Assembly (NCBI RefSeq): GCF_037042905.1
Contig: NC_087251.1
Coordinates: forward strand, 14,944,001 to 15,008,000
Reading direction: 5' to 3'
DNA from: Lytechinus pictus
Lineage: Eukaryota
Length of the DNA: 64,000 bases
Below, one piece after another: positions 8,501-60,800 of this stretch. The position numbers and the translations under genes are program-made. The notes beneath the pieces are model-generated. The model was not told where the DNA came from and searched no databases. It worked only from the letters and a program-made list of their open reading frames with translations. The number at the start of each line of letters is the position of its first letter. Positions within the stretch are counted from its first letter, which is position 1.

Positions 8501-11500
8501 CGAATTTGATGATTAGGACCTCCTTGCCTGAAGCACAAAATGTTAAAATAATGGAATTCCACGTGTTCAGGGAGGAATGAAACTTCATTTCACATGACAA
8601 TGACGAGAAAATCAAAATATTTCATATTTCATATAATAAAATACAAAAGAAATAGTGAGTGAGTGATGTCATCAGTTCCCTCATTTGCATACCGACCGAG
8701 ATGTGCATATAACTGTTTTGTGAAATGAAGCGAAACTTTAAAATGTCTTAACTTTCTTATTTTACATCCGATTTTGATGAAATTTTCAGTGTTATGCTTG
8801 TTGAATTTTTCTCTTTTTATTCAAATCAAGTTTTTTTTGGGGTGGACTTGTCCTTTAAAAGGAGCTATCTTTCACACTAAATACCAATATCAATTCCACT
8901 TTACATTGTAAAACATGATAGCTTTGATAAGTTCCCTCAAAAGGTTTTGATTTATTCTTTTCTAACAACTATCCACTTGGGTTGGAATCCATGTAGAACT
9001 GTTTCAAATTTTGTATACTACCAAATTAAAAAACTGCTAATCAAAATTTAGTATACAGTCAATTAATACAATAGTTCATTTAATCTGCTTATGATTTGCC
9101 ACCTCTTTGCTTTGTATATTATTGATTGTGAACTTTGGTATCTCTTTGATCTCACTCACTGAAAATAAGTTATCAAGAGTTTTTTTTTTTTTTAGACAAG
9201 TGACTGTTGTTATTCTATTGGTGCTTTTTTTATGTGGAAAGTTTGGAAACATTAGAATTACAGTACGATGTAATTCGGACTGCCTTTCAAATTTTGATAA
9301 AAGCGGTAGCCATACTACTCCACTTATGCTGCAAAATCCTTGTGTGAACTGTACATCAGTGTCATATTACCATTGTGTGGAACTTCGAATCACTTTCAAA
9401 TGAAAACTATGCACACTGGGAATTTGAAAGTTCTGACACACCCCCTTATCAGAAAGGACAGAATTACTATCTGTCACTGAAAACAATTTGGGATTAGCTC
9501 TTGCATGGTGTGAAAGTACTCTACAGGTGATTCAAATGAATTAAGATATTGTATTATCAAGATTGTTGTTGCAACACCATCTAAAAGCTTTCTCAATTAT
9601 AGTATTGCTCTTATTGTTTATTCACACAGGTTGGAGAGAAGGTCACTCCTTATCAAAATGTTTGTGCAAGCTGATCAAAAGTTTATCAGTATGAAAGATT
9701 TACATGTTGAAATGTTAACAACATACTGGAAAGATGTTAAGTGGGAAGAAATTCCTTGAATGCTTGATCGCCTGATCAATATACAAGTTACTAAGCTGAA
9801 TAATATGCAGTGTTTGCGAACATTTGCATGATGTGCTATATATATACATGTACAGTAAATGTTGCATATTATAATTGACCAATTCCTATCATTGAGACTA
9901 CATACATGTACATGTATACATTCAGAGTTCGCATATAAATCTACATTCTGACAGGTTAATAATCATGATGAGAACACTCCTCTATGTTATTGTATTTACA
10001 TGTATGGTATCATTTCAGAGTGCTCATTTTATGAATGTTGATTATGTAAGTACTTCCTAGATTTTATTGATGTATTTATCAATCAAAGACTGAAAACTGA
10101 ATAAGTTTGTTATAATCCAAAATAATAATGTCAACCAAACCAAAAGTAAACTAGGTAGTGAGCAATGATTTTGAGATAAAGGTTTTAAATTGTTAATGGT
10201 TATAAGGCCTTTATCTCAATGTTATTGCTTGCTAGGTTTACTCAAGATATGTTTACAATTTGATGTTCATAACCAACAATATTATTTCAGATTAACATAA
10301 TTATTCAGTTTTTAGTCTCGATTGATTTTTTATCCAGTGGTATAAACTCCATGTGTAAATCAAGAGATTTATTTCTTTCCTTCTGGGGTGCAAGACACAT
10401 GTGCATCTACATGTACGAGAATCGAGTTGCATTAATATGATATTTGCATCAGCTGTACATTGTTAATCATTAATTAAACCTGGTTTTATGGAATTCATGA
10501 ATAGTATTCACATTGAACAGTTGTTGGATGATATTTGCTGAAGTGTGAAATGTAATACTTTGCTAATTTTCAGTATATTATGGATCATCGAGTCCAACAA
10601 TATACCATTCATACTATTTTGCAAAACTTATTGAGTTACATGTATAATTACACTGCTCTCATTATCATAGTGGCAAGGCTTGAGTAGCCTATATGTATAA
10701 TATCTAGAAATTTACCTTTAGATTGAGAAAAAAATTCTAATGCATGTTTTAGGAGCCAGTGAAGACAATCATGATCAGTGACAGGGCATGTAGGTGTAAT
10801 CGGTCCTGATACTGCTGCTTCTTACCCATTCAGAAATTGAGTTACATGTGGTTTCATTTACTTGTAATTTATTTAATTTTCAATTTCAATATTATTTTTT
10901 TGTCATTCTGATCAGGTAACCTGAATTACCAGTGCCATTCCACAAGAGCATGTGAGGTGAATAAGAAGAGGCGTAAAGCATGCCCGGCATGTCGCTTTCA
11001 AAAGTGCATCAATATGGGCATGATGATAGATGGTGAGTCTGGTTATTCCACCAATTGATCAACCGTTGATCCGATGGTAGTCATAATCATTCAATTAGAT
11101 TAAAACTTCACTTCATGAATCCAATGTAAAAAAAGTTGTGGTGGGAACGTTCTCAATCTTTTTGGTCATTTTAAGAACAGAAATAGTTTTGATTCATTTG
11201 TCTCCAATGGTTCAACACACACTGATATATGTGATAAATGGATGCTGTGAAAAGCATTTCAGGGATTCTGATAGGTATTCAAATATGCAAGATCTGGATT
11301 TTGAGACCAGTATTTAATCATAGACTCAATATTCATGGAAATAAAAAACAATACATACAGTATCCTGTTGGGTTCAGTTTTAATTTTTTTTTTTTTTTAC
11401 AGTCATTATTACATACTAGTACACTGTACTCATAGAAATTCTGTAAAAAAATGAATCTTCGGTGAGAACAATGGCAGGAAATGGAAGTTCAGTGACCTCT

Positions 11501-14500
11501 ACCTATTTATTTACAGCACTGAGAGCCTTGGCGCAATAGCTGTGATACATGGAATCATATTAATCACTTTCATATTTAGAGCATTGAAGAAAAAGTAATT
11601 AAAGAGAGAGTAAAGTTCCACCCAGATAGTTTTGAAATAGGATTAAAAGATTATTAGTGGACATTGCTACATGAATGTCTTCTGTTCTGCGTGCTAGTAA
11701 CATGCAGTATTCTAAACAGAGACAATCATGGAATTAATAGTTTTCAAGCCCTTTGATAGAAATATATTTTTATTTTAGGGGGAAAAAGTCAGCCATGCAG
11801 TTGAACACCTACCTTGTATTCATATGACAGCATGGTTATATGTCAATTTAAAATGTCTGAAACATATAAATACTTCATGTATTATCATTGTGGATGCGCA
11901 GGAAGTGGAAAATCTGAAATTACAGATGATTTGTGGATTTTACTGCAAATTTATTCACAAATGTAAAACTAAACTCATATTCAGGATTATTGCAATATGT
12001 GGAAGACCCTTATTGTTTTTTGTGTGTTGAGATATCTTTTTAATTTTCACTCACTTTACAAATTTTGGTGTCCTATCAACAGTTTTTGTGAATTGAATGT
12101 TGGTTGTATGACCGTCAATATCTTAAGAAAAAAATCTTTAAACTGCATCTGACTGATTTCTTTTTGTGAGAATCCATTTCATTACTGCCAAAATTATGAA
12201 CATTATTTACAAAAAGATGACTATGTAGAATCAAAAGTAGTTGTGTACATAGTAAACATTATTTGACTTGCTTCATCAAGTACGTGTAATTTTAATCCGA
12301 CATTGGAAAGTATCCCAAATTAATTTTGCAATGAAATGAGAAGTAGAAGCAATTGCGAGTATATTTTTTGTTTAATTTTCTGTGTCATGAATATCTGAGG
12401 AAGATTTCATTTTTTAGCATTTTATAAACGTGTAAGTGAGGGCTAGTACTTTGTACTTTGGGTTAGAATTTATAATGTGTTTTTCGCCATTTGATGTGTT
12501 TGTTTGTAGGAGTTAGACCCGACAGAGTACGAGGAGGCAGGCAAAAGTATAGGAGGAGGCCAGAAGAAACGGACTTTGCTCCTTCTTCTTCAGCGAGAAG
12601 AGCGAAACATAAGAGAGGTAAGGTTCAAACTTGAACATTTAAAGAGGATTAAGGGTGGCATATCAGGTAGACTTTAGTCTAACTTGGATTTGTGTGTTAT
12701 CTTTTTGTTGGATAATGATAAAAAACTGATAAGAAACTGAAAATGAGTGATTGAAACGGAGTGATGTCATAATGGCTAGCTCATTGCTAAATAACAAGAC
12801 TGTTTAGTGATACATTTAATTAGCATTTTAAGACCCACTTCAAAAGTGGGTGGTATGGAAGGAGGTACAGAGGTGGTGGTGACGGATTGAAAAATATCAA
12901 ATGACTTTATCAGGAAGATATAAAACAGTATTTACATATGAATATGATTTAAAGGATGTATCATAGGTTATAGTCTATCATGGATTTGTGTCTGTATGCG
13001 GGTCATTTATTTGTATAATCAGAAGAAACTGATAAGTAAAAAAAGGATTAAATAGATTGATGTCATAATGGTTTACTGATTGCTGAATAACAAGACAGAA
13101 CCAGAGATAAGTTTCCATTTGATTTAGAGATCTAGGCTACCTGAAGAGTTGGTTCAAGGGGAAGAAGGGATGGAGAATGGAGGAAAGATGGTTGAAGAGA
13201 TAGGAGCAGAAGGAATGGATGGGGGAAGATTGGAAAGAAGAAGGAAGGGGAGGGGGAGTTGGACATACATTGCAGAGATGGAGAATACTATGATAGAATG
13301 ATGAATGACTAGATGGGGAAAGAGATTGGTGGGATTCATTGGAATGAAAAGATTTGATTGAGATAAGTAGAGAAAAATACAGCATTAATCATTTAGTGAA
13401 GAGATTAAAGGTATGTGATTTCTTCAGTTTAAAAAAACATGCATTGTTGTTAGTTTGATTATTTTTTAATACACTCTGAATTGTAATGTTTGTGCACATG
13501 TTGGTACATGTGGGTTTAATCTTAAAAGATTATTCAGTGAATAGAAAGCGTCTTACACGTACACACGGGGCAGCGGAACTGTTTTGAAAGTGGGGGGGCT
13601 GAGCCGAAAGTGGAGGGGCTGACCATGCAAAAAGTCACAATCAGATGGCAATTTTTGTCTCACCTGCATAGCAGAGTGAGACTATAGGCGCCGCTTTTCC
13701 GACGGCGGCGGCGGCGTCAACACCAAATCTTAACCTGAGGTTAAGTTTTTGAAATGACAGCATAACTTTGAAAGTATATGGACCTAGTTCATGAAACTTG
13801 GCCATAAGGTTAATCAAGTATTACTGAACATCCTGACTGAGTTTCATGTCACATGACCAAGGTCAAAGGTCATTTAGGGTCAATGAACTTAGACCATGTT
13901 GGGGGAATCAACATCAAAATCTTAACCTAAGGTTAAGTTTTTGAAATGTCATCATAACTTAGAAAATATATGGACCTAGTTCATGAAACTTATACATAAG
14001 GTTAATCAAGTATCACTGAACATCCTGCATGAGTTTCACGTCACATGACCAAGGTCAAAGGTCATTTAGGGTCAATGAACTTTGGCCGAATTGGGGGTAT
14101 CTGTTGAATTACCATCATAACTTTGAAAGTTTATGGATCTGATTCATGAAACTTGGACATAATAGTAATCAAGTATTACTGAACATCCTGTGCAAGTTTC
14201 AGGTCACATGATCAAGGTCAAAGGTCATTTAGGGTCAATGAACTTTGGCCAAATTGGGGTATTTGTTGAATTACAGCCATAAATTTGAAAGTGTGTTGGT
14301 CTAGTTCATAAAACTTGGACATAAGAGTAATCAAGTATCACTGAACATCCTGTGCGAGTTTCAGGTCACATGATCAAGTTCATGTAAGGTCAAAGAACTT
14401 TGGCCACGTTGGGGGTATTTGTTGAATTGCCATCATATCTCTATAAGTGTATTGGCCTAGTTCATAAAACGTGGAAATAAGAGTAACCAAGTATCACTGA

Positions 14501-17500
14501 ACATCTTGTGCGAGTTATAGTAGTTTTCAAAATCAGCACTGCTGCTATATTGAATCGCGTGATGCAGGTGAGACGGCCAGAGGCATTCCACTTGTTATGT
14601 TTTTTAACATGATTTTGGAAAAAAATTGGGGGAGGGGGCTGAGGCCCCCTCAGCCCCCCTCCCCTCCCTCCGCTGTTCCACGGCCCCTGCACACACATAC
14701 ACCTTTAAAAAAAAAAAAAAATTTGTAACATAGTTAATAGAAACTCAAAGTAAAGAGTACATGTATATGATCATGCTTTCTTTGTCATGAAATATTTCAT
14801 GCAATCTACTTTAGGGAAAACAAACCAAGCAAATGCCTGTATTGTTAATTGTAACTTTCCATTAAATTTGAGGAAATTGTCATTTAATGTCATTATGGAA
14901 TTGAAATAATACTAATTAAAATAATTCCTTCAGCCGCTGAACTGACCAAGCACCTTCTGAAGATAGAACCACCTGTCAGTACCCTCGGGCCGATTGACCC
15001 TAGCCTCAAAGACAAGGATCCAGCCTTCCAGGCCATGAAGATCATCACAGACCTAGGGGACAGGGCACTGGTCAATGTGGTCCAGTGGGCCAAACAAGTA
15101 CCAGGTGGGTGCTTCAGTATAAAGATACCTGGGCAGTTAACTAAGGAAAACAAATCAAATCACAATGAGAGGAAAACTTATTAAAATTTTGTGACGCAAT
15201 TGTAAATAGATTTCCTCTACCAGCATTTTTAGTACTTTTTTTTTTTGGTAGAAAATTTGACAATGAAACTTCTATTTTAGCCCATACAAGTGGCCCAAAC
15301 AAGATTTCTGACAAAATATTCTCTACAGGTCAGAGGTCATATTGGCCATAGCTGAGCTGAGTGATTGTTGCTTTCAATATCAGACAATAGACTAGAATTT
15401 GCTAATTTATTATAGGTGTTCCAAAACTGTTGAATGGCAAAAGCTATCATGCTCCATACTAATTGTTAGTTGAAAGTGTATCAGCCTTAGTTGAAAAGAA
15501 ATGAGTTTGCCCTGACTTATATGTATACGTTACCGTTGAAAGAAATTCTTCAGTGACGTATTCATTGTTGTGTTTGCCACAGGTTTCACAGAACTCTCCC
15601 TAGGGGACAGAAGGATTCTTCTTCAAGATGGTTGGATGGAGATCCTTCTGTGGCAGGTCATCTTCAGATCAATACCTCTCACAGACCCTGACAGAATAGC
15701 TTTCACAAAGGTTTGCTCAATTCATTCTCATACTAGTATATTATCTTCTCGGTTCAAGGACAAATCCCTTTGGAAGTGGGGGAGTCATCATTTGGGAAAG
15801 ATTCCTCAAGGAAGGGTTGTCCTCAGAGGAGCTGTGCCCTGTCAGAGCTGCCATGTTGGAATTGCAGTGGGGGATTTGTCCTTCAGAAAGAGTTATATTA
15901 TGTTCCCGACTCTCAAGAAAGCAAAGAGAAGAGGAAAGTAGAGTATGTATCACTTAAAGAGAAATTCCAGTAGCTGCAGTAAACACTGATTTCATGAGAA
16001 AGTCTGTAAAACCAGGCTTAATTGTCAGTATATCATCGAGGATCTAGATCTGGTACAGTTACATAAACTGAACTTTGTGAAATCTTGAAATCTACGCTGA
16101 AAAATGTTTAGACTGAACTTCCCCAACACAGATAAGCGCATGTGGGACTGTGTATAATTATTGCTTTGAGCGTCGGGCCCGACGCTCTACCCGAATCCTG
16201 TGCTTATTTGCTGATTTCTCAGCAATTACACAATTTCTTCCAGAATCCTTTGGCACATGCGTTTTATCTATACAAACAGACACTTTGGTGGTCATTTCAT
16301 TGGATTCTGTACGAACTCATTTTGATATCGTTACCAAAACTAGCATTTACCTTTAAATGGAGCTACGAGTGCTCACTTGATCGAGCAGTTTCAAAACTAA
16401 ATTGATGAAGTAAGAGAACAAGTCTTAATACAAAATCCTTTGGAACATATGGCTGTCATTTCTATGGCTACTTGATTATAATTTTGTTTAATTTTGTCCA
16501 TCAGTTTTCTGAGTTAGAAACCTGAGGATTAAAAGAGAATAACCACTCAGCAGGATTCCTGATTAAAGCCATAATGAAAAATGGCTCAGACTTTTATAAA
16601 TGGACCTAGGTACCTTGAAAAAGTTGTCTGTTGTCTTTTTCCCATGCAGGATTTCACAGCTACTTTCTTGCTTTTAGTCTATGCAAAGCGTTTAATGATA
16701 AAAAAGGTTAAGACGTTAAGTAGTGAAAATATGCCCAGACTTTTGTCATGATACAAAGTCAAGTATTTTAGAATCCAATGTCAGTTAAAGTCTGAACCAT
16801 CATGTCAAACATTGTGTCTACTGTAACTTTTGTTGTCACCTAGGGTCTGAGTATGGATGAGGAGCAGGCAGCAAGAAGTGGTCTTGGTTCATTAGTGGCA
16901 AAGGCATTACATCTCACGAGAAAACTCAGGGACATTGGCATTGACAAGGAAGAATATGCATTGCTAAAATGTATCATACTTTGTAATGTTGGTAAGTGAA
17001 ATTAACTGATCTGTATTGTTCGAGTGTAGGAAGAGCTTGAGAGACAATTTGGTACCACTTTCTGTGATACAACATTAAGAGAATACCATACATGGGAGAT
17101 AGCTTTTGTCAATATAGAGTAACTTTGGTCATCTCTTTATTTTTGCTTCTAAGTTCTCTTTGGAGGTGGTTGTTTACTTGAAGAAAAAAAAGATTACATA
17201 ACAGCTTTACATTGTTAGACAGTCTCATAAAATTACTGAAACAGTTGTAACACTTGATGGTTTTACCCATCTTGCCTGTTGAACCACTAATAACACCACA
17301 CATTCCATCTTCTGGTCATTATTGTTTCTCATAGGAGCAAAGTTATTCAATTCAATTATTAAAGATACCTGTCCATAACATTACTTGGTTTGTTAAACAA
17401 AGAGTTCAGAGAGACTTGAATCATACTTGTACACCATCTTGCATTTGGCATGCAATGTGTAATCCATTGATGACAATTCAAAAGCGTGAGTTCCCCAAGC

Positions 17501-23104: not shown

Positions 23105-23585
23105 AATTATATGACACCTAGATAGATCCTTGTCATTTGATTGGTTGTTTGATATTGATAATTCTTAATTCTTTAATTCTTAATTTTTTATCCATTCATC
23201 ATGAAATTTTGGATCCATACAATTTTGTCCATAAAACGCACGCACGTAGACCACAGGCACCACAAGTAAAAACATTTGTGTTTGCAGCACGCATGCTGTA
23301 CATGTATGTACGCGACAGTCAACAGACTGAGCTCACACTGCATGAACATATTATGTTGCATCAAAATTCATAAATTTCAAATGAAAAAGTATCTATTTTT
23401 AGGTGTCATATAAGCCAAATAATGAATGTTCTTTTCATTTGTACAATGGACAGAAAACTTCATTTGGTGAAAGATGAAATGAATGATCCATTCAACTCGG
23501 CTACGCCTCTTTGAATGGATATTTCATCTTTCACCTCGTTAGTATTCTGTCCATTGCACTCATAAACATTCATTATTTGTATAAT
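23105..23585 (-). mobile_element. Hairpin-ended non-autonomous element, copy A
   Basis: Reverse-complement match to 36579-37040, about 180-bp palindrome at 23401-23583. Confidence 0.75.
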
Positions 23586-24753: not shown

Positions 24754-25168
24754 GGTTACACTTCGTAATTCCGAAGGTTCTTTATTCCGAAGGTTCGTAA
24801 TTCCGGAACACGTAAATTGCCTATACCTCGATGTTCGTTAATCCGAAAACGTAAAAGGGTTCTTTAATCCGAACATTTGTGGCGTTATTCTGAAGGATCG
24901 TTATTCCGAAGGTTCGATAATCCGAAAACGAAATAAAGTTCGTTGTTCCGAAGGTTCTGTAATCCGAAACAAAATAAGGTTCGTTGTTCCGAAGGTTCAT
25001 TAGTCCGAAAACGAAATAAGGTTCGTTAATCATTTCGTTTTCGGACTAACAAACCTTCGGAATTTCGAACCTCATTTCGTTTTCGGACTAACGAACCTTC
25101 AGAATAACGAACCTTCGGAATATCTGAACCTTCGGAATAACGAAGCTTCGGAATTACGAATGTATGCG
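24754..25168. mobile_element. Foldback-type element built from ttccgaaggttcg short repeats
   Basis: TIR ttcgtaattccgaag / cttcggaattacgaa, 8-bp TSD gttgattt at 24746-24753 and 25169-25176. Confidence 0.8.
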
Positions 25169-33100: not shown

Positions 33101-36100
33101 TTCCTATTGTATTTGATTAGAAGTTTTAAATAATTCTTTAAAAATGTCAAAGGGTCTTTATAAAACTAATTGTATGTTATGCACGACTCCACAAATAACT
33201 GGAACATGTTCTTGAGTGCTACATCAGATTCCCGATCATTTTGATTCACATCTTAAGTGGAATCCAATCTTTGTAGATCAAAATCATTGTTGTGAACAGC
33301 ATGTGAATGCAAAGTTTATTTGTCAAAAATGATTTAAGGATGGCATGATGCATAGAAAATTCTGGGTTTCTCATTTAACACAAGAACATGCAACCTGCCA
33401 TGCATCAAGTTGTGCATAATTTACGAACAGCATTATGACCACCCACAATGTTTTGAATGCTTACCTCCTCATGATTTTCTTCTAGCCAATCTCTGACTGT
33501 ACCAAGGGCCACCCTACAAGCTTCTTCCTGTGGGTAACCTGAAAAATCAGAGTTTGAGAGAAAGGGATTATAAGCACAGAGAAATCTTCCCAAGTCAACA
33601 TGCTTTAAGGACGTTCCACAGTTAAAGTGAAATCCATGTCATTTACACCAAACTTTGCACATAGATACTTTAGAACCTTAATATTCGAAATATACAAAAA
33701 TTAACATAGGTCCATGTGCTTGATTTTTTGCTATAGAGCTTCAAAGTTCACCCAAATTGATGTTCTTAAGAATTGCGCATTCAAAAGAATTTGGCATTTT
33801 TAGACCTCGCAAGAATACTACAATGAGTTTAAACCTCTATTACTCAGTCAAAATACATGAAAAAGTCATCAAATTTCGCAAGAGAGTTAATAATTGTATT
33901 GTTAGAATGAAGAGTCTATTTATAGTGCTATTTGTTTGCAACTTTAAGTCTAACAGCACAGTCAGTTCTTAAAAATGGCGTAAAAGATAACAAAAACCCA
34001 ATCTCAAAAATGTGAAATTTCAATAACAGACTACAAAATTACAATAAATGCTGCACTTTATTCAAAATCCATGTCATTTTCACCAAAATTTGCAAAGTTG
34101 TAGAGGAAGCTATACCTAAGAGGTACAAACATTAAAAAATAGGGGTTCATGTGCTTGTTTTCAAACTATCAGCATTTTTATTAGAGCAAATGTGCTTTTT
34201 AAAACACCAAAAATGCGCCAAATGCGGTATCTATGTGAAGAAAAATCAAAACCACTCTACCATTTATTCAAACTCGGGGTCATATTCGTGATTCTTGGCA
34301 GTACTGCAGAGTAAAGTATTTTGAAATAGTAGAAATATTTTTTTAAATGATCCATGGAATAATTCCAGTTTTTTAGCTTCATAAAATAACGCATCGGATC
34401 TGCAGTTAGGGTGCAGATGATGAGAAAAATCAGCTCATACCCACAGCTAATTAATCACCTGTTCATCCATTGTGACGTCAGCGCGCAGTGTTAAATATGC
34501 GCAGATCATAATGCGCACAAACATAACTGTGGAACGTCCTTAAGCCAAATCAATTGGGGGGGGGGGGGGGAAGTGGAGAAAAATTGAGACCAGGGTCCTG
34601 TAACACAAAGGTTGGTGATCAATCGTACGCTTGATATTCATGATTAATTGTATATTTTCGTCTATGCAATCAATCGTTAAACAATGTTCTACAATAATTG
34701 CTAAGTTTCATGTTATGGGCCGCTGGGGAGTGTTCATCAACCTTTGTTGTCTGACAACCTTCCCTAATTTTGACTGAGTGAAAAGTTCTGTTTTCATGCT
34801 AACTGTCAGATAAAACAGACTTTGTCAGATAAAGTCCTTTCATGAAACGCTACCCTTCCTAGGCATTGATATTAGTCTTCTGAGCTAAAATTCACCTCAA
34901 CCAGATAGATTTTGTAGTCCTGATGGATTCAACTTAACCTGAACCCGACACGACAGTTAAACCTTGATAAAATACACTTCTTTGGTTTCACACACACACA
35001 AGCTGATAAAGGGATCTCCCTCAGCAACTGGGAAGTTGCCAATTTCAATCATTCATTTTCATTTCCATTCTGTTCGAATTCTAACAATCAGAATATAGTT
35101 GGATAATGTACATTGGTAGGACAAATTGAAGATGGATTCCTTAGATTGGCATGTGGGTTTTTATGAATAATTTCATTTTAAAATTGAATCAAATCGCAAA
35201 GGTAATTGTTATGTATCTACAGTTGAGGCCAGAAGTTTACATACACCCAGGAAATTCAAAGAAAAGTTGACACTTGCCAAACATCATAACATTTACTGTA
35301 TCTTATAAAATAATTGTGCTATCATGACAAATTTGATATCAAACAAATTAGTATGTCATGCCCCTTCATCTCATTGCTTTGTCATCAGGAGCTGAAAAAT
35401 ATTTAGGTGTCATTTTTCACCACAATGCAAAAGCGATTTTGTGTCTCGCCCACTTATGAAAATAACAAGAAATATTGTGATTTGCGAGGGCACGCAACAG
35501 AATTGTATCGAAACTTCATTGTAAAATGACTGGGATGGAATAACACTTGTCATTTAGAGCCTTGCACGTAAACTTTAATGTTGACCTGAAAATGACCTTT
35601 GACCTTACCATGTGACCTCCGACTGCAGCATAACATGCGGGTCGCCTAAGTACATCTTCCATCCAAGTTTTGTTGAAAAGTGACTGACGGTTGCGGAGTT
35701 AAGTGTCATAAGAGAGTCTTGCATGTAAACTTTAACGTTGACCTGAAAATGACCTTTGACCTAACCATGTGACCTCCGACTGCAGCATAACATGCAGGTC
35801 CCCCAAGTCCATCTACCATCCAAGTTTGGTTGAAAAGTGACTGACGGTTGCAGAGTTAGGTGTCATAAGAGGTCTTGCATGTAAACTTTAACGTTGACCT
35901 GAAATTGACCTTTGACCTTACCATGTGACCTCCGACTGCAGCATAATATGCAGCTCCCCCCGTCCATCTACCATCCAAGTTTGATTGAAAAGTGGCTTAC
36001 GGTTGCGGAGTTAGGTGTCATAAGAGAGTCTTGCATGTAAACTTTAACATTGACCTGAAAATGACCTTTGACCTTACCATGTGACCTCCGACTACAGCAT

Positions 36101-39100
36101 AATATCCAAGTCCACCTACCATCCAAGTTTGGTTGAAAAGCGACTTACCGTTGTGGAGTTATGTGTCATTAGGTTTGTGACGGACGGACGACATTTGGAT
36201 CCCTAAGTCTCGCCTTCACCTCTGGTGGGCGAGACAAAAAATCTTCATATTTCACACAAATTAAAAATAAAACCTTGACAAAAACATTTCATATTTGTGC
36301 TAGTTACTTCTCAACACAAACATTTCAGATCACACTTTTTGGTTCAGTGGTGACATATCATGATAGAAAATGTAATATAAATAATAGATTTGACACTTAT
36401 ATATTTCTTTGAAACGATGTTTGAAAATATAATAACAAACAATAGAATACATTTAGCATGAATATCACTTTCTTTCTTCAAAGAAAATTCCATCCAAAAT
36501 ATATTTCGATCCCAACGGCATCCCAATTAAGCGAAAGAGCTTAATAGGCTCTTTCATTTCATACCAAGTTAGTCATGGTATACAAATAATGAATGTTTAT
36601 GAGTGCAATGGACAGAATACTTCATGAGGTGAAAGATGAAAATGATCCATTCAACTCGGCTACGCCTCGTTGAATGGAACATTATTTCATCTTTCACCGA
36701 ATAAAGTATTCTGTCCATTGCACGAATGAAAAAACATTCATTATTTGGTTTATATGACACCTAAGGATTGATTTTTTTTTCAGATGAAATTTATGAATTT
36801 CGATGCAAAACCAGCTCATGCAAGGCGAGTTCGGTCTGTTGATTATTACGTCATTACAACATGCGCACTGCTGGTGCCTGCAGCTGCAGTCTCGTTGCAA
36901 TGGACAAAATCGTATGGATCCAAAATTGCACGATGAATGGATCCAAAATTGCACGGTTGATGACGTAATTGCAAAATGGGCTGAATGAACGATATCAAAC
37001 AACCAATCAAATCACAAGGATCTGTCTAGCTGTCATAATGTACAAATAATGAATGTTTATGAGTGCAATGGACAAAATACTTCATGAGGTGAAAGATGAA
37101 ATGATCCATTCAACGAGGCGTATAGTTGAATGGATCATTACAACACGCGCACTGCTGGTGCCTGAGCTGCAGTCTCCGTGCGCGCGTGCAATGGACAAAA
37201 TCGTATGGATCCAAAATTGCACGGTTGATGACGTCATTGTAAAATGGGCTGAATGAACGATATCAAACAACCAATCAAATCACAAGGATCTGTCTAGCTG
37301 TCATAATGTACAAATAATGAATGTTTATGAGTGCAATGAACAAAATACTTCATGAGGTGAAAGATGAAATGATCCATTCAACGAGGCGTATAGTTGAATG
37401 GATCATTACAACACGCGCACTGCTGGTGCCTGAGCTGCAGTCTCCGTGCGCGCGTGCAATGGACAAAATCGTATGGATCCAAAATTGCACGGTTGATGAC
37501 GTCATTGTAAAATGGGCTGAATGAACGATATCAAACAACCAATCAAATCACAAGGATCTATCTAGCTGTCATATAATAATATTTATATTTCTGAAGATAT
37601 AGTAAATTTTACGATGTTTGGCAAGCGAACAAATTTCATGGGTGTATGTAAACTTTTGGCCTCAACTGTATATCTAACAGATACACATTTTGGTCTTGTT
37701 GGTAACATGGTCTCTAGGGACACTTGCTATCCAGAGGGTACTATTTGAAGGGGGTGAGGTGGTCTGTGTCCTAAGGGGATTTCTTATCTGGAAATAACTG
37801 TTTCTGGAAGTCTTGTCATAAATTCACTGATTCAATATTCACTGATACAATATTCACAAATACAGGTAAGTAAATAAAGCATCAAGCACAAATATATACA
37901 AGTATTTATGAATGTACCACTCAAAGCATTCTGACATGAAGAGAATCATTTAAAACCCCATTTCAATAGGAATGCACATTCAATCTGCTACATACTTCAG
38001 TCAAACCTGTCTCTAAAGACCATCAAAGGGAGATAAGTAAAATGGTCTACAGCTGGGGGTGTTTCACAAAGAATAACAACAAGTATGACTTAGAGTTGCA
38101 ATTAAATGTGACGTGTACACAAAATGAAACATGCAATCTTATTGATCAATACACAGTAGTTTGTGTCCTTCTGGCATAATCTGACCAATGCTGTTATGCC
38201 TCTTATACTGCACACAACTAAGCATTTAAGTGCGACTCTAAGTCATACTTAACTCTTTGTGAAACACTCCCAGGTTTGATTGTAATACAAGAAAACATAC
38301 TCACCATACACTCCTGTTGATATACAGGGGAAGGCAACTGATCGGATCAAGGGTTCTGCTGTTTCCAAATCCTCCTGTAGCGTCTTATAATCGCTATCCC
38401 CTTCCTCTTCTGATGCTTGCCTCCCATTGGCTGAAGCATCCTCTTTGCTCTCTTTCTCTTTGGTGTCCGTCTCGTCTCTGCTCTTCCCATCACCCTTTGC
38501 AGCATCCCGTTTCCTCCTGGCTGCCTCCATCTTTGAACGGTTGTTTTTGTTGTGTTCGAGGATTTGCTGGAGGCACGTTGCATAGCAACTAGTTAGGGCT
38601 TCCCTGTGGTTTAGGCTCGGGTTGCCGTAGACGATCGGGCCCACTGTGTGAAGGACATCTGTAAACAGCACAGATGAATTTCATATTAGATGTAAAAACA
38701 AAACATGCCTTCATGATGATTTACAGATTTAAGCAATGATATATCCTAAAATCTGAAAGACATAGATATAGTGATTCAAGGAATTTTATGGAAACCTTTA
38801 ATTCCATGGATGTTTATTCATTTTATTTTAGATAGGAAACTCAAGGGAAAGGGGGGGGGGCATGACAAAGCTACATTCCTGAATTTTCAAAGCAATTCTT
38901 TATTAAAATTACAGAGGACATATGTAATTATAGGTATTATGTACTTACATCTAGCTGGAAGGAGATAACCTGCAAAAAAAAAGAGAAAATAAAAATAAAG
39001 GAAACAAATTGTTATTGTGAATAACATCAACAGATGGCAGTATAGGAATTGACAGACATACATTATATTGAAGTATCCTGAGCTTATTAACAACACAGCT

Positions 39101-50160: not shown

Positions 50161-51613
50161 TTTTTAGCTCATCCAGTCCGAATGGCAAGATGAGCTTATA
50201 CCGTGGCGTGGCATCCATCCACAATTTAAAAATGCTTCTTCTTTGCCATTTCAATTCTGTTTGCTTTATATGATAGCACTAGGTGGGGGATTCAAAACTT
50301 CTACACAGAATTTTGAAACTCATTAAATATGCTAATTTATGCACATTTTTAAAAATTCACAAAAATTGCTCCTTTATTTGTTGACCGATTTTGAATTTTT
50401 TGCTTCCATCTGGTAGAGCTTCATGAGGTTCACCAAATTTCTACATAGAATTTTAAAATTTTGACTAGAACAATTTTTATGCTAATTCATGCGAAATTAA
50501 TTTATGCATATTTTTAAAAATTCACATAAAATGCTTCTTCTTTATTTGTTGACTGATTTTATTTTTTTTTTCTTCCATCTGGTAGAGCTTCATGAGGTTC
50601 ACCAAACTTCTATACAGAATTTTTAAATTTGGAGTAGAAAATTATTTATGCTAATTCATGCAAAATTCATAAATCACAGAAAATGCCTCATCTTTATTTG
50701 TTGACTGAATTTCAAAATGCTTCTTCTTCATCATTTCAAGTCTGATTTCAATTCTGTTTGCTTTATATGATAGCATTAGATGGGGGATTCATAACTTCTA
50801 CACAGAATTTTGAAACTCATTAAATATGCTAATTTATGCGTATTTTTAAAAATTCACATAAAATGCTTCTTTAATTGTTGAACGATTTTGATTTTTTTTT
50901 TCCATCTGGTAGAACTTCATGAGGGTCACCAAACTTCTACACAGAATTTTGAAATTTTCAGTAAAAATTATTTATGATAATTTATGCGAAATTTATTCAT
51001 AAATCACAGAAAATGCCTCTTCACCTTTGTTGACCGATTTTGATTTTTTTTTTCTTCCATGTGGTAGAGCTGCATGAGGTTCACCAAACATGTACACAAA
51101 ATTTTGAAATTTTTTCTACGAAATAATTTGCTAATTTATGCAAAATTTATTCATAAATCACAAAAAATATTTTTTCTTCTTCATTTGTTGATCAATTTCA
51201 ATTGTGTTTGCTTTATATGATAGCTCGAGGTGGTGATACAAAATTTCAACACAGAATTTTGAAACTCATTAAATATGCTCATTTATTCATATATTTTCAA
51301 AACTCACAAAAATACTTATTTATTTGTTGATTGATTTTGATTATTTTTGTTCCATCTGAGAGCTACATGAGGTTCACCAAGGTTCTACACAGAGTTTAGA
51401 AATTTTAACTAGAAAATTATGCTTAATTTATATGAAATTTATTCATAGATCACAAAAAATGCTTCTATGTCATTTCTTCATCAATTTCAATTCTATATCC
51501 TCAATTTATGTCACCAATATAATTCACTACAGTGTCAACTGGGCTCAAATTAAAATTGTGTTAAATTTAGTTGCGAGATGCCGGATGAGCTCCACATCAT
51601 TGATGTGCTAGTT
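50161..51613. mobile_element. DINE-1/HINE-like element with internal tandem repeats, downstream of the RNASEH2C stop codon
   Basis: T-run, hairpin agctcatc..gatgagct, repeated units with catgaggttcaccaaa, subterminal IR ggatgagct, end ctagtt. Confidence 0.72.
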
Positions 51614-52830: not shown

Positions 52831-55800
52831 CTCAGAAGTAGAACTATGTCTGCAAATTTGAGGGCCATCTTTTTTTTTTTACTTTTTTTTTTAAATGTTA
52901 TTTATGCAATGGCATAATTTCAAATTTAAAAAAGGTTACTCATGCAGACATCACTTTTTTTTATAAGTTGAAGGAACTCCAAAATGTCCACATTAAATTA
53001 GAGGACCTGAGAACTTGTCTTGTATGGTATTAAAATAAAATTTTGCCGTTTTTCCCGATTATTACCTGTATTGCTTTTGAATATGGTTTTTCATGAGAAA
53101 GTTGTCTCATGCCCACATGTTATTATTTCCCACGAGGAAACTTACCATTATAATATCCAAGAAATTTTGTACATATAGGAAAGAAAAAACCCAGATCGAC
53201 TAGTTTGGTTTGTTATAAAATATTCATCTTTAGTATTTATTTCCTTTTCATACATTTCTGATTGATGAACATTGTGTACATGAATATTACATCAAATTTA
53301 ACTCTAGATTGTCAGATCTTAGGTGCAGATTCACAATTGAAGGAAAAATAAAATATTTCAAGCTATATGAAATAAATAACTATTCCTCCATGAAGAAATA
53401 ATTTTGGTAATTTCAGAAGTTCACTTATTGAAATATAAGTATCTTCATTCAAATAATCATAATGCTAATTATTGAACTCATCATCACTGGCAGCTGGCTG
53501 AAATACAAATAATTATACAACATAACACGATTAAAACAGTACCTACATAGAACAGGAATGGCAATATGAAACACACAATTCAATTTTAACAAATAACATG
53601 CCATTTCTGGTTCTTTTGACAGTCTGTAGTGTAATGCTCTCAAATGATCATGACTTGGTCAGTTTATGAAGTGAAGTAAAACTTGAGAAAAATGGGGGTC
53701 AGATGTATAAAAATGTTGAGTATTTCACGAAAGAGAGTCAAAATAATATCTGAGAAGGGGGGGGGGGTAGGAAGAGGAAACGAGACAACTAGACTGACCC
53801 ATTCAACAACATATAAGATAACATTAAAAAAATCATGAAAATAATCTTGGTGCACTTCTGGGAAATACTTGAATGCTTAGAGTAGACCGTGTATAATATC
53901 CTGTAGAATTTCTGTGTATTCTTCACTCTGATTGTGTTACCTCTTCAGAGCCTTGAAAAAGCAGATATCTATACTAACACATACATGTACTTGTGGTCTA
54001 CGCATGGATGTGAGTGATCACAAATGAAAATAGCTGAAATTGCATAAGCTCCAATACTTTTGTCAAGACAAAGTACACAAAAAGCTATAAAAAAAAAATA
54101 ATAGCTATAGCAGAGTCAGAGAGAATATTTGGACATGCCATATAAAGCTGTGATGTAATTATACTTTTATTACACTAATGGTCACAACAGTGCCTAGATA
54201 TTTCAACACCCAAAGGGCAAAGCAGTTTTCAGTATTGTTTGTATTTATATAATACATTTTCAAATAAAAAATTCCATTCGATACAAACATGATGCAATAA
54301 GGGTTAAACTAAAATTCTGCAAAAATTTTCAGCCAACGTACTTGTAAACTTTGAATCAAGGAATAGTTTATTCTAAAACATAACACAGTACTATATATTT
54401 GTAGAAATAACATGAATATGAAATATAGCATATATACACCATACGAAAATAAAACAAATCTGATAGAAAAAAACAGCTAACCACCTATACCTTGACATTT
54501 TGAAAAGTAATTCATACACACACATCAGTGTACATAGCTACCTGTATATGTATGGTGTATAACTTCTTTATATAGAATACACAATTTATAATGGCTATTT
54601 GCACACATACTCGTATAGAGGATGAATAATATATTGTGTATGATTACACAAAAAACAATATCGAATCTGGACAGAGTTTCATGAAATCTCAGGTTTTTTG
54701 TGGTTTGTGAGTTACGCATAACTTTACACGCAACTGGTGACCCATTTTTTGTGACAATTGAGATAACCGAAATGATTGCCATGAAAGTGGAATTGTGACC
54801 CTCCACATGATAGCTCACTTTTGATTAGCCATTGGAGATGTGGTTTCAAAAATATAGCGTAAGGAACAAATGTAAAAGTTGCGAGTTGATTTTGGGGGGT
54901 TTTACATAATTATACCTAGGTTTAACTCTAGGCTTGACAAGAATTGAAGTCCACACATGGAATGCTAGCTTTCGGTATCCTAATTCAAATAAATATGATA
55001 ATGTACTAAAGATTTCATTGAAATCAAAACTTGTACATGTATACTCATTACATTTTCTTTGCATTTTACCTTAAATAACAAGTTTTGGCAATTTATTTTT
55101 ACTGTATGATTTAAATAGTAAATGAGAGCTCTGGCACCTTAGAAAACTGTTGTCTACCTGAGGTGAATTAATTAGTGCTATGAAAGTATCAATTATTACC
55201 AGAATGAGGCATTTTGGAGACAAGATATAAACATGTATTTTGGTTGTCTGATTGATTAACTCAACACAAATTACATCACAATGGTCCAGCCAGGGTTCAA
55301 CTGAATGATTAGGGACCATAATATTCATACACCCTACTTCGCGAATTTTGTCTTTTTCCTATTGCACCTATGTAGTAAATTATCGGTCCGTAATATCCGT
55401 ATTCCCATTTTATCAAGCGCAAGACTTGTACGCATAAAGTGTATCTACATGCCATGCATGATGCACACCTGTGCTGCTTTACACTTCACGTCACAATTAC
55501 TTAGCCAGGATTACATCATCAAATTCACGAACAACCTGAATTCAGAAGTACCAACCGGCAAAAAGGCATGAATTGCTGCAAATAAAAGCTTAAATTACAC
55601 ATCATACAGTTGCAGGCCTATAGGTAATAATAATAATAATGACTGGCTTTAATTTTCGGGAGAAGCCATATATTTCGATCAATAGGCCCATATTGCCCTC
55701 GTCAAGACTCGGGCATTGTGAGACTACTTCAGGAAATATATATGGTATCTCTCTCAAAGCCAATCAATATTATATATATGTTCTTTTGCAAGGAGTTGTG

Positions 55801-57704
55801 TATCTTGAATGATTCAACAAACACAGGTCAATATGGAACTTGTCAATTTGAGTTTAATCCCACATTTCAAAGCAATGCACCACCATATTGTCATAATATT
55901 GTGACTTTCATATACTATGCCACTATTGAAGAGAAGGAAGGTGTTTACAAACTAATATCTCCAAACCAGTTTTTAACATTGATAGTAACCTATTTTTTTA
56001 ATACAGATACCAATCATACCACTCACCCAATTTCTATTGGCAATGAGTAGCAGCTCTGAGACTCTGAATTCAAAGAAAATGCCTTTTATCATATTGCACA
56101 CATTTGAACAGGTTATGCGAAGGGTCTTCAACAATATTACAAACATGTTATTACAGTGTACATATATATGTCAACAAGTAATTTGAATTAATCTTTGAAT
56201 CCTTATCTATATATTTATATTTCAGAGAGTACGTTTCAGAATTAACAACACAGGCAACTATAAACAATACTTTGATAACATGTCATTACAGACAACCATT
56301 TGTGATCATCTTGGTTATTTGCAAAAATATTTGTAGACGTATATATACTCGATCTAAGTATTCTAGGTTTGTAAAATTAGGTGTATTTCTGAGAACTCTT
56401 TGAATACATAATCTTGTTTCTTTGATCAGTATTTTTCATGATGAACATCTATTCAAAATTCAAGAATAATTGGATACAGGTATACTGTAGAATATAACAA
56501 CCGTCAGTATTCATCTGAAAGTTAACTTACATTTTACAACATATTAGGTAACTCATGGGTTTAATCTAAACATTTAATAACCTATGATTTTTTTAGTCCT
56601 GCAGCATAATAACATGAGTTGAAAAAAGAGCACACCAGTCATGCAATGTAGATGCTGTTTCACAATTCATCATGTTACCAAGAAGGAAAGATGACTAAAT
56701 ACTAATGCACAATTTCAGACAAAGAACTTAACAGCACTCAGAACAAATCTCACTTTACTCTATTATACAAAGCTGCATCAAGAACAAGCACAATACAAAT
56801 AAGACTGTGGGCCTGATGGGAAAATAACTAAAATTATAACGATAATAAAAATAATAATCATAGTTTCCTTTAACTTTAACAAAATATACATACACACTAT
56901 CCCCCTTCCCTGAATAAAAAAAGAACAGATGAGAAAATACAAGAAAATAGTATTTTGTTAAAGAAACAGCTGGGTTTGTACAAAAAAGTTACAATGCTAA
57001 GAACTTGAAAAAATTGATGACAGTGACACTCTAGTAATATTCAGCATGTGATGGCAGTGTGTGTCCGTTTGCATCAAGTGTTTGCATTACGAGATGTTCT
57101 TAACCAAACATAAAGGTACCTAGACAAAAGTCTGAACTTCATCTTTTAGTGGCAAACACACTCGGCTTTTTCCTTTCTAATCCTCCCTTTTCAGCATACA
57201 CAAAACAAAAGAGAATATAGGAATGCCGCATTGAAATATAATAATGATAATAACGGTATATTTACCCAGGGTAGCCACTTCAGTTCCGAAAACTGTTCTC
57301 CCAACGGGCCCTGCTATTAGATACTGAGTGGACTTCCTGCTCAAAGACATGGCACAGAATTTGGTAAGTAACTTAAAGCAGAAATGATAACTGTTCCTGT
57401 TGGCAGTATTTAAAACTACTTTTTATTGAAAATACTGCAGGTTTCATGATCTATACTTCGTTCCAAAATCGCACATGTCTATTGCAGCAAAAGTGGGAAA
57501 ATACTGTTTTACCACCAAAAATACTTTTGTTTAATCCATAGTAAGGCATACTTCAATTTATTTTACAAGGTTGGCATCTCTGCTAAAAAAAAGGAACCTT
57601 TGTTTAAGAATAAGATCATCTTGAACACATACATAGTCGTAACATTAATGTAATATCACCTGTATCTTCATTACATTCATATCGAATAAGAATTTTTGTA
57701 GAAA

Positions 57705-57809
57705 CTACCGATCAAACGTCCGCACCATGATCTGTCTGACCTCTTCTTGGTGTAGCGTTGCCGTGCCAACAGCAGGAACTCCAAGAACATCTCTCCCAGC
57801 ATACGCAAG
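57705..57809 (-). CDS. DHTKD1: DHTKD1 terminal coding exon
   Basis: [34 protein letters not shown]. Confidence 0.92.
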   Translation of the reverse strand, partial: LAYAGRDVLGVPAVGTATLHQEEVRQIMVRTFDR

Positions 57810-60800
57810 CTGTAAATACCAATTTTTAGGAAAACACAAGATGTTATTATTTTGATATTTTCCCTAAATGTAAAGTCTAATCTTGTTTTATATATAAAGG
57901 TCATCCTAAATCCTCTATTGATCAGCCATATCCCCAGGCCAGCTTTCTTCTTTAAAACTAATCATCAGCACCATTTATGGGCAATTTTTAATCTTGGGAG
58001 CATTTCATGAAACAGATATCCTCTCGATTTTCACTTACCATTGTTATAAGCTACTGAAAGCATTGCATCTGATTGGTTCAAAGTAAATTTGTTAGTGAAA
58101 ATCACTATTTGTTTCACAAAACACTCCCCTTATTTCATTCCATTTTCATTTCAAAGTCACAGAACCATTGATAACTCACAATCACCAGCATGGAGGAATT
58201 ACACATTTTATAATGAATACCGGTAGATCTCTCGACCATATAAACCTTACTAGCAATGGCTTCCCACTCCATTTTGCCACATAACTGGAAGGGTGCCTGC
58301 CTCTCTGTGGCCATACCATTGAGGCCGGACTCTAGAGTGCACAAGGTTTGTACACTTTCTATATTTTTGTATGGCAGAAAATGCAACCTTCAAACATCCT
58401 TTTAGTTTGCAGGACTTATCCAGGCAAACAATTTGTTTATTTGTCAAAATGGTCAAATCTATAAATATAAGTCATTTTACATTGTTGAAAAAAATATTTC
58501 CATGAAATTTTAAGAGAAATAGATCTAAAACTGCCTCATATCACTGATTTCACCCTGATTGTTGGCTTCAATTCAAAATATCCCACTAATCCAACAATGT
58601 CCTTATCATCACAAAACTTTTTAAATGAATTAGGTGTTGGGGAAAATATGTAAGTTAAAACTAAAACCAAACTGATTTATTACATATGTTAATTAAGCAA
58701 GAGTGCTATAAATGTAGAAGAGTATAACAGTCACAAATCATTAGAATATTCGACTTTGTAAACTCTGGATCAATCACTGATATTCAACTCAGATTTATAT
58801 GTGTTACAAGACCACTTCATTGCAAAGCTGAGCTATCTTGTCATTGCTGTTTTATCTTATATTGATTTTCACATACCTTATACCCAACAAGGTTTTCAAA
58901 GCGAGGTGCTACAAAGGACCACGCCCCCATATTCTTGTGTTCCTCTTGACTCCAAACATAATCTGAGAGGAAAAAAAATCAATGATATAGATTCATTTCA
59001 GTAACAAAAATATGATGATTTCCAATCAATGTTATATCTATATCCGTTGATCAATATCTGATCTATGGCATAACAATATCTATTCCATGTAGGACAACAT
59101 AAAGACATAAGATTGCCTGTCTGCAAATTTCTCAGAGTAATATATCTATTCACTTTTAATCAAGAGCGTATGTCTATTTATTTATGAATATAGTACATAC
59201 ATCTCATCTTTGGCAAGACAGCATAATTATACACATCACACATTGCATGATGCAATGACTACTACCACCATGACTAGATTTAGAGTTACGGAAAATCTGA
59301 AATTGACAAGTTCCAAATTGACCTGTGTTTGTTGAATCATTCAAGATACACAACTCCTTGCAAAAGAACATATATATAATATTGATGGCTTTGAGAGACA
59401 ATCCATCAGAATCTCATATTTGGTATAAGGTAAGCTGTCAAACACAGAACAGTAGCTCCAACTAGACAATTTATCCCCACAACCACAATATAGCTATTCT
59501 GTCCACTCGTCAATCATTTTTGTCTGACATTTAATCATACCATCCACCCATCAGTATCTCACCTTTGGCATTAGTATATCTACTTAAAACACTTTGCAGG
59601 ACATCAGCTGGGAAGGGGCATAGAGACTCGACCCTCACTATGGCTATATCATGAGCCTGTCTGCTCTCCCTCTCCTTCTGAAGGGCATAATAGTGCTTTC
59701 CACAGCATATAATAACCTTCTGGATACTGTATTTACAATAAAAAAAAGGTTGTGATATAAAAATTAGAGGCTGACTAATCACTGGAGTCAAATAACAGAC
59801 TCAGATATTTCTTTTAGTGTACTTGCAAAATTTTCAATTAAATTGAAGTTAATACATGCATAAACATACTTCAAACAAGAGGAAGTGAACAGTTGAATAC
59901 CTGTAGTTTTTATACAACATATTTCCTTTAAAAAAAAACAAATATTTCATGATACCTCATAACAAACATTCTTTCTGATGTTTACAAAGAAGACAATTGT
60001 ATTTTGGGTATGAGATTTTATACTTGTAGTAACTTCTCTTATACTGCCAGGTAGTAAATTCTGGATTGGCAACCTGGAGTATAATCAAAATACAAATACC
60101 ATCATGTTATTTACTCAATGAGTTAAATAAGTTTATACTATGACAAAAAAACACCCTTATTTCCATATATGCATACGGAATTAAACTTTATTCGCAGACT
60201 TAATAAAGCACACATTGATTTATAAACAGTAAAAATCTGAAATATTAAATGCTTTATCACTGAACAACTACAAAGATTCTCCACAGGGCAGGCAAATCAA
60301 ATCTATAATAATGATAATGATAATAATAATTTTATATACCGCAAATCGCAAATTGCCTTTACCATAGCAAGATGAGAAGTGTATTATACATTCAACTTCA
60401 TTGTAAATTACACCAAAATACGAGCTTGCATGAGAAATAATTGTTGATATTGTAGGCCTGCACATAATGGGTGCCAGTCTGTGGACTATTCGTTATTGGT
60501 ATTTAAAAAGAATAGCATTCCATAATAATCTATACATATCAGTAGAAAAACCTTGAATGAAAAATGATGGCCTTTATCAAATGGAGGTATGCTCATTCTT
60601 TTTTTTCAATAACTTATCTGTTCCGAGAGAGTTCACTCCAATGTATAATATTACTATAATGTTACTGTATCACATACCTTTTAGGATCAGTAGTCTGGTC
60701 ATCTATAACTGGTCTAAAACTAGTTCCAGGACCCATCTCCGAGAGGTCTGAAGTGGCAGCTGGAAGACGTAGAAGGATCTTTGGAGAGGCCATGATCAAA

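Follow-up and report, generated by a model that had tools for sequence, protein, structure and literature searches.

The DNA analysed here (hereafter the window) is a stretch of 64,000 nucleotides from Lytechinus pictus, NC_087251.1 positions 14,944,001-15,008,000, and all positions below are relative to its first base. The window is low in GC (30-40%) and rich in repeats. Four copies of one hairpin-bearing family were identified in it by blastn and alignment (A, B1, B2 and B3), three of them independent. The coordinates of these copies, and of the parts of B1, are given in Table 1.

Table 1. Copies of the hairpin family in the window and features of copy B1.
Feature	Position	Strand	Description	Basis
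Copy A	23107-23583	-	Full length, diverged (75% to B1); majority loop; flanks TAT/TTCACT/TTA fit TAW-N6-WTA	
Copy B1	36579-37038	+	Full-length non-autonomous element, 460 bp; inverted hairpin core	blastn, alignment; family ends in four public runs
7-base spacer, hairpin end	36579-36585	+	TATACAA, the element's own	Equivalent constant in 90 of 94 hairpin ends, families C and D
Outer hairpin arm	36586-36655	+	Tandem G.A sites 36601-36602 and 36626-36627	
Probable inverted core of B1 (ends approximate)	36641-36684	+	Holds the minority-orientation loop, 36656-36668	Opposite-strand joints, core alignment
Inner hairpin arm	36669-36744	+	Partner G.A sites 36699-36700 and 36724-36725	
5-base internal spacer	36745-36749	+	TTGGT, opposite the 7-base spacer in the predicted folded + strand	5-base spacer also in related families
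Internal inverted copy of far end	36750-36764	+		Self-comparison
Far end of B1	37003-37038	+	CCAAT box and terminal arm, lacking 2 bases at the B2 junction	
Copy B2	37039-37306	+	268-bp deletion derivative; B3-left/B1-right chimera (local tandem duplication)	
Copy B3	37307-37576	+	270-bp deletion derivative; majority loop; complete far end, then target half-site (TAATAT, then TTA)	

The initial annotation of this DNA described an element that begins with an imperfect palindrome of about 180 bp with distinguishable arms, and that description holds. The B1 arms are 82% identical across 171 columns, and the predicted hairpin fold (-64.1 kcal/mol, z = -14.7) was equalled by none of 200 shuffles. 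What the annotation overlooked is an internal copy of the opposite end: the inner arm runs on into the inverted far end, and the joined ends of the element could pair wholly with this internal stretch, with seven bases opposite five. Self-comparison brought out the one-ended hairpin and the internal copy of the far end but no terminal inverted repeats (TIRs), and the window copies hold no open reading frame (ORF) of at least 120 aa. The B1 far end has a CCAAT box; family C carries one close to the corresponding end, and L214, described below, carries one upstream of its recombinase ORF. As the annotation had reported, no target-site duplication (TSD) is evident at A or at the B cluster; none is present at two empty sites in families C and D. 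Ordinary DDE-type ends with TIR and TSD, which the annotation had named as the alternative, are not found in the family, and the absence of both argues against a DDE-type MITE. In four public runs, contigs stop sharply at 36578/36579 and at 37037. For each listed run, 18-79 contigs with unlike flanks were counted at either end, which marks the family as dispersed and abundant.

The head-to-tail tandem described by the annotation needs correction. B2 and B3 are deletion derivatives that lack the inner arm and the middle of the element. B2 matches B3 at two diagnostic sites in the alignment and B1 at a third site and at the junction, and it is most simply read as the product of an unequal crossover. 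The tandem would then be partly a local duplication, leaving one true head-to-tail junction.

Several other features of the window were recorded. The left flank of B1 (36230-36565) is a high-depth repeat in the runs with no second copy within the window. On the - strand, positions 38249-38400 hold a Macro-domain gene exon (Pfam PF01661, E 1e-10) whose splice donor lies near 38290; the B cluster is therefore probably intronic. Four 156-bp tandem units at 35556-36240 end in a GACG repeat and a short hairpin with an A run, an arrangement that we take to resemble Helentron-type non-autonomous elements; like arrays of 155-192-bp units occur at 13717-14516 and 50333-51466. Inverted-repeat elements lie at 55763-59386, 8248-8858, 4175-4958, 5030-5690 and 24762-25160. 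Among these is a pair of 93-nt arms, 97% alike and 3.4 kb apart; several are fold-back elements and one is built of 16/42-bp units.

Related hairpin families and elements encoding a recombinase

Metagenomes and genomes were searched with a loop pattern that is blind to orientation and, by design, misses copies with damaged loops. The search returned at least 120 metagenome loci (80 of those listed with full flanks) and 73 genome loci. Most of the 73 prokaryote-genome matches have no long arms and were excluded, save those from G001, a 12-Mb assembly that includes low-GC, animal-like DNA. In G001 the loop matched 55 times and the reversed control once, and DUF3504 had five matches, three of them above cut-off. 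It is titled as a bacterium and holds many low-GC contigs with animal-type transposons, which are likely host contamination. Among the matches listed, four loci (L025, L044, L082 and L090) resemble the window family directly, and others form families C, D, H and more, with the same layout.

Two long elements, L214 and L216, have this layout together with a gene; both come from another animal's DNA, and no autonomous partner with the window family's own ends was found in the DNA searched. L214 is a 2.3-kb element consisting of one end, a tyrosine recombinase (YR) ORF, an inverted end copy (29 bases, 96.6%) and the hairpin. L216 is arranged likewise, but its ORF is frameshifted and its end copy shorter. 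In both elements the hairpin lies downstream of the YR gene. YR/DUF3504 was identified by Pfam scan in L214 and by family search in L216; the catalytic R, H and R align and are followed by the tyrosine in both (R-H-R-Y). Both ORFs are broken, by an insertion in L214 and by the frameshift in L216. The L214 insert (2341-2558), which disrupts the YR gene, is a small multi-copy sequence with a 100-bp perfect palindrome. The loops of L214 and L216 are unlike the window loop. A third locus, L215, has one end in common with short hairpin elements such as L217, and its other end lies off the contig. A search with the L214 protein found no relatives in viral contigs, and against solved structures it matched only QRICH1, weakly (E 0.41).

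Because two YR/DUF3504 elements have the anatomy of the window element, we consider it very likely that the latter is a non-autonomous CryptonA-type transposon, a membership assigned by anatomy, without a linked gene. The initial annotation had suggested a non-autonomous partner of either a Crypton-like YR element or a rolling-hairpin element. The anatomy shared with L214 and L216 favours the first of these; the second is disfavoured, the two long copies having YR/DUF3504 reading frames only and no HUH nuclease. Animal CryptonA elements occur in sea urchin, acorn worm and cnidarians, and terminal repeats are reported absent from them in the accessible text of Kojima and Jurka 2011 (PMC3212892). 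With that description the present elements share YR/DUF3504 as the sole enzyme of the long copies L214 and L216, abundant short derivatives, and the lack of TIR and TSD. The hairpin, internal end copy, target core and mechanism considered here are features that the accessible part of that description does not contain. The layout is likewise undescribed in the literature searched, with subscription papers, Repbase Reports and supplements outside its reach; Repbase entries or the PMC3212892 supplements may describe the palindrome.

The internal inverted copy of the joined ends (36750-36764 together with the inner arm) also resembles the internal complementary region of DIRS elements, as outlined in the available part of PMC13465315. 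On that basis the window element might be read as a non-autonomous retroelement of DIRS type, its internal region acting as the splint for a cDNA circle. We regard this as very unlikely: inverted terminal repeats and a reverse transcriptase, both features of DIRS, were not found here, and only YR reading frames occur in the long copies, of which L214 is about 2.3 kb.

Loop orientation in the window and in related families

The loop does occur in both orientations relative to the arms, as the annotation had claimed. Copy B1 carries TCGGCTACGCCTC after the outer arm (36656-36668), and copy A has GAGGCGTAGCCGA after the same arm (23497-23509, - strand). In B2 and B3 the loop reads GAGGCGTA (37115 and 37383) and lacks three bases, so that the B1 loop is inverted relative to those of A, B2 and B3. 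In contigs of the four runs, the consensus loose ends adjoining the arms show the GAGGCG orientation, and opposite-strand joints are found at 36639-36641 and 36681-36684. B1 is thus the minority form, with about 42 bp inverted. The inverted segment probably comprises the near-perfect core of about 42 bp at 36641-36684, extending beyond the 13-nt loop, and its ends are staggered, with one base gained and one lost. The runs also show an extra A in the loop at 36661, at 30-69% of contig depth in all four; many host copies probably have a four-base loop tip, like that of L216.

All four loci resembling the window family are in the majority orientation by eye. For the larger families, orientation was scored by script with repeated sites merged, which gave 9 flips, 97 majority and 3 ambiguous sites of 109 in family C, 1 flip of 25 in D and 1 of 12 in H. 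On hand checking, L013 and L048 proved to be one majority-type site and L023 and L032 were of majority type, leaving 8 of 108 in C. Flipped loops were therefore counted at 10 of 145 distinct sites (6.9%, 95% CI 3.8-12.2%) among the matches listed, in families C, D and H of other animals: eight sites in family C, plus L080 and L291. By the annotation's own account, its reading would fail if nearly all copies shared one orientation, through a one-off inversion or an assembly artefact. A strongly predominant orientation is largely what we found, though the flips are recurrent and real. B1 is the sole flipped copy in the window, and on its own could have been an assembly or library artefact. We give that explanation almost no weight: flips recur across several independent assemblies, with one site found in two of them (L040 and L056); the perfect stem beside the loop in family C is about 10 bp, which should fall below the usual assembly words; and the ends of the B1 inversion are staggered. 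In a 36-row tree, three flipped full-body copies fall in three places, with weak support (starred branches) that is compatible with one origin.

Rolling-hairpin termini carry their two isomers at a near-equal ratio. The annotation had pointed to such flip/flop isomers from hairpin nicking and resolution, which in a parvovirus-like rolling hairpin with an HUH nuclease would be obligatory, and the recurrence of both orientations in B1 and at the ten sites outside the window is what this explanation has in its favour. It is nevertheless most improbable. The 10 flips among 145 sites in the matches listed depart from 50:50 with p ~4e-29, the long copies encode a YR and not an HUH nuclease, and the hairpin is chromosome-internal with no covalently closed end. 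Nor is it the main loop alone that flips: in the arm of family D a smaller second loop is inverted at three sites among the matches listed. The FLIP and FLOP forms of AAV, as set out in the available text of PMC7671332, similarly differ in the orientation of an internal palindrome against the remainder of the terminus. That text shows both AAV forms to be common and gives no fixed ratio, and the forms arise from the viral replication scheme; here the flipped form is a 7% minority, chromosomal, and associated with a YR partner.

Inversion by a recombinase, the other origin considered in the annotation, also fits poorly. One YR-like core is present twice, at the terminus and, inverted, at the internal site, and a YR acting between these two sites could invert the hairpin. 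Such a reaction would swap the arm markers, whereas in flipped family-C copies the outer markers stay outer, one of them about 10 bp from the loop. No flipped family-C site has both arms swapped, and the B1 G.A sites both remain on the + strand. We hold inversion by the YR to be scarcely credible. Instead, the flips are accompanied by one-sided homogenisation of the arms, at seven C sites and one D site among the matches listed, and by the flips of the second small loop. Template switching yields spacer inversion and arm homogenisation, both named as outcomes in the available part of PMC8604942, and because of this association we consider replication template switching the likely cause of the loop flips. 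Both outcomes are found here at similar frequency, and the system described in that text consists of short repeats in yeast genes. A flip rate of 7% may be high for ordinary chromosome replication.

Target core, spacers and strand asymmetry

Target sites were compared in 40 full-length copies, 8 of 48 rows having been dropped for poor or short ends. TA occupies positions +8 and +9 in 35 of the 40, against a background of 6.7% (p ~3e-36), and the same holds for 45 of 55 far ends collected independently, without that filter. The target core is TAW, six free bases and WTA, with no duplication. Copies A and B3 fit this core; the left flank of B1 is TGG, not TAW. At the two empty sites in families C and D, insertion took place after TAW with nothing duplicated. 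Direct repeats of 4-6 bp are absent, the two ends having only TA or TAW in common, and homology with the spacer is limited to at most one base (T at +1 in 29 of 40). At several loci (L183, L237, L256, L026, L235 and L267), different hairpin families are inserted inside or beside each other, and inverted far ends act as target half-sites.

Tyrosine recombinases cut 5' of the spacer on each strand, and in B1 the exchange point would sit immediately 5' of the 7-base spacer. The spacers are distributed unevenly between the two ends. In families C and D the element's own spacer is constant at 90 of 94 hairpin ends, and it follows 4 of 55 far ends, one of which is a clear tandem junction. An automated search for the ends of further families gave 11 rows, most of them again from C and D. 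Outside C, D and L217/L312 the 7/5 spacer was read by eye, and it was not made out in N, J, E or L214.

The two strands of the hairpin also differ in their mismatches. Across 15 representative hairpins, arm mismatches outside the loop comprise 57 G.A and 2 T.C, and tandem mismatches 18 GA/GA and 0 TC/TC. Both G.A sites of B1 lie on the + strand. Since the G.A strand runs antisense to the YR ORF in both L214 and L216, the bias does not reflect an mRNA fold. Tandem G.A pairs are stable within folded single strands. Predicted folding prefers the G.A strand in 13 of 16 hairpins, by only 0.4-7.2 kcal/mol; the preference is absent in L216, B1 and one flipped C copy.

Strand-biased features, an unpaired spacer and the product of one strand, which would together mark a folded one-strand substrate, are all present at the level of sequence. 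An exchange of both strands without spacer homology would be expected to leave the mirror product about half the time, and only the G.A-strand product is seen. The sorting of the spacer to one side, with the product of one strand alone, argues for a single-strand exchange like those of integrons and CTX phage, an interpretation that we judge rather probable. The alternative is movement as a double-stranded circle that exchanges both pairs of strands, following either the Goodwin model or a Tn916-like scheme in which the spacer is a heteroduplex; the hairpin would then be a site for binding, replication or regulation, and the flips again template switches. Fungal Cryptons and Starships are modelled in this way in the available part of PMC13465315, the target here is a normal palindromic YR core, and a single-stranded intermediate has not been seen. 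The double-stranded route nonetheless appears unlikely to us. A double-stranded circle sits badly with the missing 4-6-bp direct repeat, the near-absence of spacer homology and the one-strand product, and it leaves the one-strand G.A bias and the 7/5 spacer unexplained.

A candidate single-strand route and its counterparts

The reading that we favour, with moderate confidence, is that the window element is a non-autonomous CryptonA-type transposon whose G.A strand folds as a single-stranded circle and undergoes one YR exchange that replication resolves, the flips being template switches. A YR would be borrowed from an autonomous Crypton and the G.A strand released as a single-stranded circle; pairing of both ends with the internal copy would then create a YR site in which 7 bases face 5 in an unpaired spacer. 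There the YR would exchange one pair of strands with a double-stranded target, leaving a junction for replication to resolve, as in the recombination of integron attC sites and of CTX phage. This would place the element's spacer at the hairpin end and the target's at the far end, where they are found. Since the inserted far end and the target half-site would make a new target, head-to-tail insertions could follow. Template switches in the near-perfect hairpin core, in the chromosome or during single-strand copying, would produce the flips. Families C, D and H, from other animals, supply nearly all of the counts behind this scheme, and neither the circle nor the single strand has been observed.

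To our knowledge, a YR route through a folded single strand has been shown only in bacteria so far. As described in the accessible text of PMC2727003, integron attC x attI recombination has a folded single strand, an unpaired spacer, strand choice by mismatches and one exchange followed by replication, all of which would have counterparts here. AttC is bacterial and a short, self-contained hairpin; here both ends and the internal copy would make up the site, and a loose palindrome serves as target. CTX phage with XerCD likewise exchanges one strand pair between a single-stranded element and a double-stranded target before replication, but it uses host recombinases and a single fixed site (dif), unlike the element here (PMC3442271, in the available part). 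In the strand-biased circularizing elements of Vibrio, a YR makes a circle of a single strand and a 6-bp spacer is sorted to one side; these elements carry four genes and a spacer from the donor site, whereas the spacer here is fixed, and the available text mentions no hairpin (PMC9345347). CryptonF and Starship elements share YR-driven insertion without a true TSD. They are flanked by 4-6-bp direct repeats with target homology, in contrast to the lack of spacer homology and the spacers at fixed sides found here; the 2026 paper on them (PMC13465315), in its available part, gives the direct-repeat model and notes that for some families repeats have yet to be described.

The broader proposal is that animal CryptonA elements integrate as folded single-stranded circles, by one exchange at TAW-N6-WTA cores, with the flips and arm conversions as scars left when that single strand is copied, and so as marks of the intermediate. 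We put the chance that this general form holds at about even; the elements would then be the first eukaryotic counterpart of integrons and CTX phage. A single-subunit tyrosine recombinase would be inserting single-stranded DNA into short targets that are common in animals, without spacer homology, and the elements would hint at what domesticated DUF3504 proteins once bound. The element ends, the target core and the one-sided spacer supply exact substrates for testing how animal Cryptons move. The flipped loop is the ordinary part of this picture, probably an occasional copying error.

The loop searches also turned up hairpins of other kinds. Five metagenome loci (L036, L054, L055, L088 and L094) have two or three adjacent hairpins with the same loop tip and arms that are perfect or GA-studded. 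In viral contigs the loop pattern matched four phage stretches without arms. The same 19-base loop motif occurs in phage contigs and several prokaryote genomes, repeated within one assembly and with short arms (L001-L004; L154, L171, L182, L186 and L187; L132, L160 and L195; L153, L163, L185 and L189). These phage and prokaryote loci may represent another class of single-strand hairpin repeats.
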